From the NCBI GenBank assembly GCA_951406725.2, contig OX597831.1, positions 4,154,001-4,218,000 of the forward strand: DNA of 64,000 nucleotides, given 5' to 3'. Position 1 is the stretch's first letter. The number at the start of each line of letters is the position of its first letter. Made by a program: the position numbers and the translations under genes. Below, in pieces: positions 40,133 to 42,220 of this stretch. The DNA comes from Octopus vulgaris. Taxonomy: Eukaryota. The notes beneath the pieces were generated by a model. That model saw only the letters and a program-made list of their open reading frames with translations. It did no database searches and had not been told where the DNA came from.

Positions 40133-41022
40133 AGTAGAAATATTTTTGTGGTGTGTGTGTTGGTGTTGGTGTCTGTGGTGGCCATCCTGCATCTGTTGGA
40201 GGTGGCCTTATGTGGTGGTAGTTCCAGCTTTGTGCTTGTAGCCAGGTCAGCTGCTGAACAATTTTTTGTGCCATGCACAAAAAAGACTGCTGTTCAGCTG
40301 CCGCCCTTCTCACATCTGGGTGAAGCTGGCCACCTGTTGGGTTTCCGCGCACCACATCTGCATACCGTCTTTCAGTAGTGGTCAGTGCGCTTTTTTCCCT
40401 TCTTTTAACTTTTTGTTTTTGTTCTCCCTGAGGGAGGGACCTCTGTCTCGCGTCCGTGCGGTTTTGGTAGGGCCTCCGATGTGCAAAGCGACAGTTTGCA
40501 CCTTCAACGCCGTACCAGCAGTCCCCCCTCAGGTAGAATTTGCAGGTGTTTCTTTCCCTGCCCTTACAGTTTTTGCTGGGGTCCCTCTGCTTTCTCTGGA
40601 CAGGGCTTCCTTTAGCCTTGATTCTGTCACCCTTTACCTCCTGCTTCCCATCAATTCCAGGGTGCCTTTCTTGCGGCCATCGCACCTCTTTGGTCTTCAG
40701 TTGTGGTGTTGGAAGCTGGACATGTGTCATCGTTTCCCTGTGTTCCAGGCTTCTCCATTTGGCTCTGGATGCTTTCCTCATCCTTTTGGCCCTCCCTGCT
40801 GCCGTCACCTCCCAGGATGATGTCCAGGGTGTCCACATGTTGCCTGATTAGAGCGTACGAACGGATAACTTCTCTCTTCTTTCGCTCTATCTGGGCGGTG
40901 GTTCTCGAAAAATTGTTGCTTTTCAGCGCCGCAGCAATAATTTCGTTCGGCGAGTCGTCCTCAGCGATCTTCCAAGCGCGGACGAACAATTGCACCTCTC
41001 TCGCAGACCAGTTTCTTGCCAT
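40133..41022 (-). CDS. Trihelix/Myb-SANT-like plus CCCH zinc-finger protein (one frame change), probably ORF1 of a CR1/L2-group LINE; putative ORF2 start cut by the gap
   Basis: MARNWSAREVQLFVRAW..IAAALKSNNFSRTTAQIERK..Y..VDTLDIILG; CKFYLRGDCWYGVEGANCRFAH (C-x7-C-x8-C-x3-H, 40479-40544); YADVV and QSFL motifs; overlapping MATTDTNTNTHTTKIFL at the gap edge. Confidence 0.65.
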
Positions 41023-41028
41023 TTTCTT

Positions 41029-42178
41029 CTAGTGAAATATAGGAACAGAGAGAGAGATAGAGAAGGAGAGATATGGAGAGGGAGAAGAGAAAGGAGAAAA
41101 GCCAGGGGGGATAGAGAGAGAGACGAGGGGATTTTCCTGAGAGAAGAGAGAAAGAGAGAAAATAAGAGGGAAAAAAGAGAAAGGTGAGAGAATGGCAGGT
41201 CAGCAGGGGGAGAGTGAGCGGGATAGAGGTGTAGTAGAAAGGGACAGGGTGGAAAAGTGAGACAAGAGGGTGGACCCTAGGGGGGCAGGGAGAAGAAAGG
41301 CGGAGAGATAAAATGGAGAGGAAGAGAGAGATGAAATGGAGAGGGAGAGAGAGAGAGGGCAGGATAGAGGTACCAGGGAGTGAAGTAAAGGGACAGAGAG
41401 GGTGGTGTGGAGGAAGGAGACAGAGAGAGGAAAAAAGAGACAGGGGGGTGGTGAGCCTTAGAGGGAACAGGGAGAGGAAAGGTAGGAAGGAAAAAGGGGG
41501 GAAGAGGAAGAGAGGGGGCGCAACAGAGTGTAGTAATGGGACAGGGAGGGTGGTGTAGAGAAAGAAATAAGGGGACAGAAGGGGAAGAGGAAAAGGGGTT
41601 TGACCTGTGAAGGAGCGGAGAGGAAAGAGGCAGAGAGAGGGAGGGGGAGTAACAGAGAGAGAGAGAGAGAAAGAGGGCGGTATATAGATACAAGAGAGAA
41701 TGAGTGAAGTTGAGGAACTGAGAGAGGGGGTGAGGTGAGAGAAAGTTGATCTGAGAGAGATGCAGAAAGAGAAACGATTGCAGAGGGAGAGAGAGGGAGG
41801 AGGGGAGAGTGAGAGCGGAAATAGAGGGTCTGGTGGATGGGGAGACAGATAAGGTATAAACAGTATGAGAGAGATAGAAATAGAAATGTAAGAAAGAGAG
41901 GGAGAGATTATAAAGATAGAATAGCGCGTATTTTTATATCTTTTTAATTATTATTTTCTGTTTGAAAGAACACTAATGATAACAAATAATAAAAATGTAT
42001 GAGAGAGATAGAAATAGAAATGTAAAAAAGAGAAAGAGAGAGTGCGTGGCAGGCACGAAATTATAAAGATTATAAAGATAGAATACCGCGTATTTTTATA
42101 TTTTTATATCTTTTTTGTTTTTTTAATTATTTTCTGTTTGAAAGAACACTAATGATAACAAGATAAATAATATCTTAC
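41029..42178 (-). other. Candidate 1150-nt 5'-UTR intron, CT-rich on the minus strand
   Basis: Donor AAG|GTAAGA at 42178; about 800 nt of pyrimidine-rich tract; acceptor TTTCACTAG|AAGAAAATG six nt before the ATG. Confidence 0.5.
41863..42160. repeat. Imperfect tandem duplication (units start at 41863 and 41997)
   Basis: GTATGAGAGAGATAGAAATAGAAATGTAA...CTGTTTGAAAGAACACTAATGATAACAA occurs twice. Confidence 0.9.
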
Positions 42179-42184
42179 CTTACC

Positions 42185-42220
42185 GGCTGACAGAGAGTAC
42201 TTACGTGATTCCTTTTTATA
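42185..42220 (-). promoter_or_regulatory. Candidate TATA box plus initiator
   Basis: TATAAAAAGG starts at 42220; Inr-like TCAGCC has its A at 42188, 32 nt downstream; splice donors follow immediately. Confidence 0.4.

Follow-up and report, generated by a model that had tools for sequence, protein, structure and literature searches.

Structure of the LINE copy in the window

The window analysed here comprises 64,000 nucleotides of the Octopus vulgaris genome (assembly GCA_951406725.2, contig OX597831.1, positions 4,154,001 to 4,218,000). On its minus strand, between positions 42693 and 40133, it holds the 5' 2.56 kb of a young long interspersed nuclear element (LINE), a copy of what is hereafter called family A, with a 5' untranslated region (UTR), a first open reading frame (ORF1) and the beginning of a second (ORF2). 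The copy ends at an assembly gap (Table 1), and the remaining part of ORF2 was searched for within the window and was absent. A full-length copy of family A is approximately 5.6 kb long. The ORF1 region gave 1415 first-look candidates in a search of the octopus's own genome, and all 40 of those scored were 97-100 % identical. Family A was sampled as 29 other copies for ORF1 and 20 loci of 10 kb for the ends and ORF2; the 5' module was compared across 30 loci that carry it.

Ten of the 20 long loci share a 5' start corresponding to window position 42693, and the remaining ten have scattered 5' truncation points, none of them at 42188. The 3' UTR of family A is about 60 nt long and ends in an octamer tail, (AAGGATTT)n. 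No terminal inverted repeats were detected in one full family A copy. ORF2 begins 842 nt past the ATG of ORF1; it is 1003 amino acids long in seven of the long loci, 947-1026 amino acids in five more, and broken in eight. In an intact copy it contains, according to Pfam, a reverse transcriptase (RT; RVT_1, E 8e-30) and an APE endonuclease (Exo_endo_phos_2, E 1e-10), both above cut-off, and no RNase H. ORF1 and the APE-RT ORF2 are the only ORFs of the element, and no DDE transposase partner accompanies them. A fixed 3' end with a tail and variable 5' truncation, without long terminal repeats or terminal inverted repeats, together with APE and RT domains in ORF2, characterize an autonomous APE-type LINE; the terminal inverted repeats and DDE transposase that go with a PIF/Harbinger second gene are lacking. 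The feature is almost certainly one single LINE.

The anatomy is of the CR1 type, RNase H being absent, the 3' UTR short, and a short tandem-repeat tail taking the place of poly(A). The C-terminal motifs of ORF2 are presumably CR1-like as well, and on the basis of this anatomy and these motifs membership of the CR1 clade is highly probable. Family A, having an ORF1 and an octamer tail, is not a CR1-Zenon element, since these are described as lacking ORF1 and carrying a poly(A) tail (PMC13343379).

The earlier note on this DNA, made from the letters alone, offered two explanations: a LINE family whose ORF1 is of an unusual, DNA-binding kind and which has retained an intron, or a LINE sitting inside a DNA element or a host transcription unit. 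The former, as far as the Myb-type ORF1 is concerned, is backed by the other copies, Pfam, the predicted fold and the related families. The latter was rejected, because copies in unrelated locations have the same 5' end, the same two ORFs and a LINE tail, and lack terminal inverted repeats and a transposase. The motifs from which these explanations were drawn all lie where they had been placed: TATAAAAAGG at 42220, TCAGCC at 42190 (A at 42188), GTAAGA at 42178, the 1150-nt interval, CACTAG at 41034-41029, the ATG at 41022, the C-x7-C-x8-C-x3-H pattern at 40544-40479, YADVV at 40364, SFL at 40286 and a second ATG at 40185.

Table 1 Features of the LINE copy and its borders (positions in the window)
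Feature	Position	Strand	Remarks
Short (TA)n at the 5' junction	42694..42701		Flank, not element; full-length copies all follow TA-type repeats
5' terminus AAGATGGCG, YY1-like motif	42685..42693	-	Preceded by C/T; exact in 26 of 30 module loci
5' module 1, approximately 568 nt	42126..42693	-	92 % identical in family B; also on D-type bodies
TATA-like site	42211..42220	-	Candidate only; inside the module, 473 nt from the element start
Two overlapping donor-like sites, CCG/GTAAG/GTAAGA	42173..42183	-	Candidate; AAGGTAAG in 30 of 30 module loci
Candidate intron	41029..42178	-	1150 nt of the 5' UTR; 77 % pyrimidines, no ATG
ORF1	40134..41022	-	298 amino acids in intact copies; broken here; stop codon at the gap edge
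Myb/SANT-like four-helix domain	40810..41016	-	Residues 3-71; basic, pI 9.8
Single C-x7-C-x8-C-x3-H finger	40479..40544	-	Motif and zf-CCCH score
Conserved C-terminal block YADVV ... AAAEQQSFL ... LTWL	40228..40364	-	Kept in families A-D
ORF2 start (APE endonuclease and RT)	40133..40185	-	Overlaps the end of ORF1 in the -1 frame
Assembly gap, 100 N	40033..40132		3' 3 kb of the element missing from the window

Domains of ORF1

In the window copy the frame of ORF1 changes through a 5-nt deletion near 40665 that is private to it. The 29 other copies include 20 with a single ORF1 of 298-302 amino acids, and in 26 of the 29 the Myb and CCCH parts stand in one frame. This linkage had been proposed for checking in other copies together with a downstream APE-RT, which was likewise confirmed: the peptide MATT...TKIFL, read earlier as the beginning of an APE endonuclease, is the start of the 1003-amino-acid ORF2 elsewhere.

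Pfam gave genuine matches to both domains named in the earlier note, yet both fall under the cut-offs in the window copy. Myb_DNA-bind_4 (PF13837) reached E 0.0012 and 19.7 bits against a cut-off of 27 (16.3 bits in family B), and zf-CCCH reached E 0.0006-0.001 and 19.4-20.1 bits against a cut-off of 20.5. The PF13837 cut-off was exceeded by the ORF1 of a more distant octopus family, family E (29.8 and 29.9 bits), and by protein P0045 (29.3 bits). The finger follows the CCCH spacing C-x(7-8)-C-x(5-8)-C-x3-H, and its ligands are retained in six of seven aligned ORF1s. The C-terminal block is likely a helix that would serve in oligomerisation.

A structural model of residues 1-80, made from a 20-row alignment, had a mean predicted local distance difference test score (pLDDT) of 83.5, with helices at residues 7-19, 25-35, 42-60 and 63-71. 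The first ranks in Foldseek were RAD MYB, TEAD4 and the SANT domain of DNAJC2. A wide fold search again placed RAD MYB at the top (Z 7.3, root-mean-square deviation 2.5, 58 residues aligned), followed mostly by Myb/SANT-type domains, among further matches to MiDAC, DNAJC2 SANT, TEAD, GT-1, Zeste and TRF1. Residues R40, Q44, R47 and K48 are invariant or nearly so and lie on the helix which aligns with the Myb recognition helix. The model, the fold search and these conserved residues together suggest a three-helix helix-turn-helix (HTH) with a long third helix and basic recognition residues, and the domain very probably has a Myb/SANT fold.

The isoelectric point (pI) of the domain is 9.7-10.4 across families A-D (families B-D are described below). 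Between these families the Myb part is 42-64 % identical, compared with 11-26 % for the linker, and its proportion of nonsynonymous differences (pN) is 0.24-0.37, compared with nearly saturated synonymous differences (pS, 0.67-0.86). The Myb and CCCH parts are under purifying selection.

The nearest proteins with source names came from Octopus vulgaris, O. sinensis and Argonauta hians, and a search of the ESM Atlas with ORF1 gave no usable match. Two annotated octopus proteins (P0014 and P0008, one of them named adhesion G protein-coupled receptor G6-like) contain 50-80 residues of ORF1 at 78-92 % identity, being either exonised LINE pieces or errors of gene modelling.

5' end and promoter modules

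The 5' terminus of family A resembles CAAGATGGC, the YY1 site found at the 5' ends of mammalian L1 elements (PMC5381506), and the RNA that serves as genomic template is predicted, with good confidence, to start at 42693. The first 568 nt, module 1, likely act as internal promoter; beyond them the UTRs of families A and B are unrelated. A second 5' module, upstream of ORF1 in loci L094 and L096-L099, is common to copies of families C and D; it starts with ACTTCCGG, which we take to be an ETS-like motif, and contains CGCCATCTT, YY1-like in reverse. The UTR of L094 has in addition an array of repeats of about 40 nt. As module 1 is found on A, B and D-type bodies and module 2 on other C and D copies, promoter modules have been exchanged between co-existing families.

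The earlier note took the TATA box and initiator as the start of the element, or as lying upstream of it, and derived from them a first exon of 10 nt. Neither claim is supported: the TATA-like site is internal, it reads CATAAAA in family B, truncated copies do not begin there, and the element starts at 42693. It is TATA in 23 of 30 module loci and CATA in six, and TATAAAW occurs by chance in 30 % of module shuffles. A LINE body starting at the inner TATA with a promoter borrowed from outside was rejected, since truncations do not cluster at 42188.

Related octopus families and RT phylogeny

Searches with two diverged ORF1s revealed families B, C and D, which are 35-42 % identical to family A in ORF1 and 64-74 % in ORF2, and each of which has Myb, one CCCH finger and the SFL block followed by APE-RT. 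The ORF1 of family E consists of Myb, a Q-rich linker, four CCCH fingers and SFL, followed by an APE-RT 37-39 % identical to that of A; its Myb domain and that of A-D can be aligned across 73 columns (97.6 %, E 4e-12). Five octopus LINE families (A-E) therefore have a Myb-headed ORF1. The family E loci (L237-L252, on several contigs of the same genome) have a 500-nt 5' UTR and are older, mostly broken copies. A PF13837 search of the genome gave 43 loci above cut-off; among 20 examined, 15 belonged to family E and five to host-like genes.

For comparison outside the octopus, a search with an ORF2 alignment retrieved 80 metagenome loci, and upstream frames were read in the 31 with enough 5' sequence. 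The relatives nearest in RT have tandem CCCH fingers and an SFL-like block, with a PHD-like finger where the N-terminus is present (four loci); more distant ones have ORF1s with PHD and coiled coil or of esterase-like type. In RT trees of 41 and 29 rows, A-D and an Argonauta protein form a clade with 100/100 support, nested in a 100/99 clade of elements whose readable ORF1s carry tandem CCCH. Family E is not part of the 99/98 group containing A-D and clusters, weakly supported (85/85), with elements that have PHD and CCCH. Of the fingers in the tandem arrays, the first is the homologue of the single one in A-D, and the CCCH array of family E matches the PHD + CCCH arrays at 99.5 %. Two distant RT lineages of one genome accordingly carry Myb-headed ORF1s, the same ORF1 body being PHD-headed elsewhere.

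Four LINEs from marine metagenomes (L141, L146, L148 and L150) encode an ORF1 in which a PHD-like finger and at least three CCCH fingers accompany a helical domain, a type that was not found in the available text of the ORF1 surveys searched. Together with protein P0033 they share with the octopus families the RT clade (100/99), a homologous CCCH array and the SFL block. They differ in that their N-terminus is PHD, preceded by the helical domain, rather than Myb, and in having three to four fingers compared with one in A-D; family E combines Myb with four.

Insertion sites, SINE partner and neighbouring sequences

The 3' junctions of family A were TA-rich in 17 of 18 readable cases and the truncated 5' junctions in 11 of 17, compared with 6.9 % of the positions of the window. 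The ends of families B, D and E mostly run into (TA)n too. Target-site duplications were unreadable because the junctions lie in (TA)n. Copies of the families often adjoin or nest within 10 kb (L092, L095, L097 and L216), as would be expected if (TA)n targets were common to them.

The tail of family B is (GTAAAAGA)n, and 18 sites in the window have a match to the last 60 nt of B (77-92 %). A 430-nt repeat resembling a short interspersed nuclear element (SINE), with inner (TA)n/(TG)n, occurs at 10190-10616, 14389-14795, 21413-21836, 25220-25643 and other places, and its ends match family B; it is the commonest SINE of the window, present about every 3.5 kb. According to the rule that a SINE and its partner LINE share their tail (PMC4824008), the common 3' tail makes the clade of the window LINE the likely partner of the SINE.

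A tandem duplication (26161-40032 and 42700-54772, 90-98 % identical, period approximately 16.5 kb) has its joint where the LINE copy and the gap are located. At the paralogous site, 26161, there is AT without (TA)n, a hint that short runs of TA may grow or be added at the 5' junction. Broken pieces of a non-LTR retrotransposon (an RT end and a zinc knuckle, split by microsatellites) occupy 35700-38262 of the plus strand; they presumably include motifs of a restriction-like endonuclease (RLE) of R4/Dong type. A 219-amino-acid frame at 45264-45923 (plus strand), repeated in the duplicated unit, is, we assume, similar to the C-terminal part of a Penelope-like RT. No tRNA genes were found in the window with ARAGORN.

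Evaluation of the interpretation

Taken together, the feature is probably one copy, seen in its 5' half, of a young LINE that is autonomous and 5.6 kb long. Besides a Myb/SANT-like domain, its ORF1 carries a single CCCH finger and the conserved C-terminal block, and the element is likely transcribed, without splicing, from an internal promoter at its YY1-like 5' end. Several points weigh against this. The family A copies studied were the best-scoring ones, and the Myb and CCCH domains of the window copy score under the Pfam cut-offs. Foldseek gave no match with E <= 0.001, a Z of 7.3 falls in the range reached by common helical arrangements and by itself speaks weakly for the fold, and sequence searches of solved structures returned chance matches and no Myb. 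The second and third tryptophans of Myb repeats are missing in families A-D. The RT trees hold only unnamed relatives and no named CR1 reference. The comparison with PHD is weakened in that this finger was scored with Pfam for L141 and recognised by eye in L146, L148 and L150, and a replacement of PHD by Myb would be without direction, the metagenome loci nearest to A-D in RT (L133, L136 and L139) ending before the N-terminus of ORF1. The preference for (TA)n was measured against the window background alone, with no other octopus repeat as control.

The Myb domain itself allows more than one origin and role. PF13837 is typically found in host proteins and in the second genes of Harbinger elements, and five host-like genes of this kind occur in the genome; a LINE inserted into such a second gene or a host Myb unit, which would have supplied the TATA box, micro-exon and intron, is nevertheless extremely improbable, considering that Myb and CCCH share a frame in nearly all copies and in five families, that the ends are those of a LINE without terminal inverted repeats, and that the ORF1 profile scores E 2e-18 to 1e-10 on family E but only 2e-6 to 0.01 on the five host-like domains. 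For the window locus such a chimera is refuted. The domain may have been captured long ago from a host or Harbinger gene, and no donor was found among the longer proteins (seven matches, all ORF1-like) or 20 of the 43 PF13837 loci. As to role, binding of DNA or chromatin, rather than of only RNA or protein, is slightly favoured as a prediction. A Myb-like domain turned to RNA binding or self-assembly, which no longer reads DNA and is one more interchangeable ORF1 module, is plausible yet somewhat less probable. The loss of the core tryptophans in A-D agrees with it, as do reports that ORF1 modules of CR1/L2 elements are exchanged freely (PMC4120745) and that some are dispensable (PMC13343379). 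Families A and B, moreover, have a common promoter module despite Myb domains only 49 % identical, which argues against a tight promoter-specific reading. The conserved R40, Q44, R47 and K48 on the presumptive recognition helix, the basic character of the domain in four families, and the presence of PHD in the same slot in relatives speak against it.

The same LINE might instead contain a working intron, from the donor at 42178 (515 nt inside the element, after a first exon of that length, or of 10 nt if transcription began at the inner TATA) to an acceptor before ORF1, giving an mRNA with a short leader, with unspliced RNA as the sole template for new genomic copies. We regard this as rather unlikely, and the version with the 10-nt exon as less likely still. 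The earlier note had asked whether copies share TATA, donor and acceptor: the donor is indeed kept in every module locus and TATA in part of them, but the acceptor at -6 is special to family A, being absent in B, C and D. The donor-like 9-mer arose in 2.4 % of 2000 module shuffles (a post-hoc test), and the common module stops approximately 45 nt beyond the donor, which places the breakpoints of swaps between families inside the candidate intron. No ATG is present in the interval of family A, compared with 4.3 expected (0.7 % of shuffles), and the interval of family B, with 13 ATGs, has CACAG 28 nt before its ATG; module 2 also has, by eye, GTAAGA and then a long CT-rich tract. Against the intron, acceptor-like sites occur at chance rate (three seen, 3.5 expected), family E has its 500-nt UTR without a pyrimidine tract, and spliced and unspliced RNA would carry the same 3' tail that the ORF2 protein is thought to read. 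No spliced genomic copies were found for A (acceptor at -6, either donor) or B (acceptor at -28), compared with 66 exact unspliced copies of the A acceptor and ATG; the A acceptors at -115 and -255 lay outside this pattern search, and all 30 module loci run on into the interval. Contigs of three runs guessed to be RNA also span the acceptor unspliced (40667-41187, 40971-41133 and 40971-41407), although they could represent DNA or read-through of other copies; no joint from these three runs stood among those listed, which speaks neither for nor against splicing.

Proposed mechanism and implications

In the preferred reading, that of an unspliced two-ORF LINE, the internal promoter would start full-length RNA at 42693. 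The ORF1 protein would coat or package the element RNA through its CCCH finger and basic surfaces and oligomerise through its C-terminal helix, and the basic Myb domain, in the slot of the chromatin-reading PHD of the relatives, may tether the particle to DNA or chromatin. The ORF2 protein would then nick (TA)n and reverse-transcribe the RNA after recognising its 3' tail, a tail which the abundant SINE appears to have copied. A far-reaching combination can be imagined, in which LINEs with a CCCH-type ORF1 captured a transcription-factor-type Myb in the place of PHD, which steers insertion to (TA)n or controls their own promoter, swap cassettes of promoter, first exon and donor, translate spliced RNA and copy only the unspliced, and drive the commonest SINE of the genome; as a whole it is quite improbable.

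The element adds an ORF1 architecture, Myb/SANT-like with CCCH, to the known set of LINEs, with a bridging family (Myb and four CCCH) in the same genome. The role of a swappable N-terminal ORF1 module could be tested directly by exchange of PHD and Myb. A spliced intron that is never retrocopied, if true, would show how a LINE can keep its mRNA and its genomic RNA apart. The families are young and have many intact two-ORF copies, and one of them has its tail in common with a frequent SINE, which makes them good candidates, alongside the published RTE elements, for a leading driver of genome expansion in the octopus.

Comparison with known systems

The octopus LINEs share with CR1-lineage LINEs of types III and V in the scheme of Khazina and Weichenrieder, the ORF1 of which is PHD-type or unclassified (Metcalfe and Casane 2014, PMC4120745), the two ORFs, APE and RT without RNase H, the short 3' UTR with a short tandem tail, and a modular ORF1 with a swapped N-terminal domain. 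They differ in the modules themselves, Myb/SANT-like and CCCH, the survey of 448 elements listing PHD, RRM, CCHC, transposase-22, esterase and zf/lz (PMC4120745). The words Myb, SANT and CCCH are absent from the main text of that paper, as from that of PMC13343379. The literature searched, beyond which lie Repbase, Dfam, subscription papers and supplements that may hold these families, gave no account of family A itself or of a CR1-group LINE with Myb or CCCH in its ORF1. The full-length, possibly active octopus LINEs RTE-2_OV and Dong are unlike family A in being single-ORF RTE/Dong elements, and neither CR1 nor Myb occurs in the main text describing them (PMC9115989).

The 5' UTR of mammalian L1 is similar in its 5' terminus, (C)AAGATGGCG, and in the exchange of non-homologous 5' modules between families; the octopus module, unlike it, is AT-rich, has a donor-like site at its 3' end and has been passed sideways among co-existing families, and little promoter replacement has been found outside mammals, according to the same source (PMC5381506). 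A Myb domain in a non-LTR retrotransposon is known from R2, which uses it to bind target DNA (PMC12503042); there it is part of a single RT-RLE protein, whereas in the octopus it belongs to a separate ORF1 of an APE-type element. The nearest precedent is the Zepp-like L1 of Coccomyxa, the ORF1 of which contains an HTH-family domain (HTH_1), although of LysR type, without CCCH and in an algal L1 of another clade (PMC5203782). Compared with the papers searched, the pairing of Myb and CCCH in one ORF1 appears new, modular ORF1s and promoter swaps being already known in kind.

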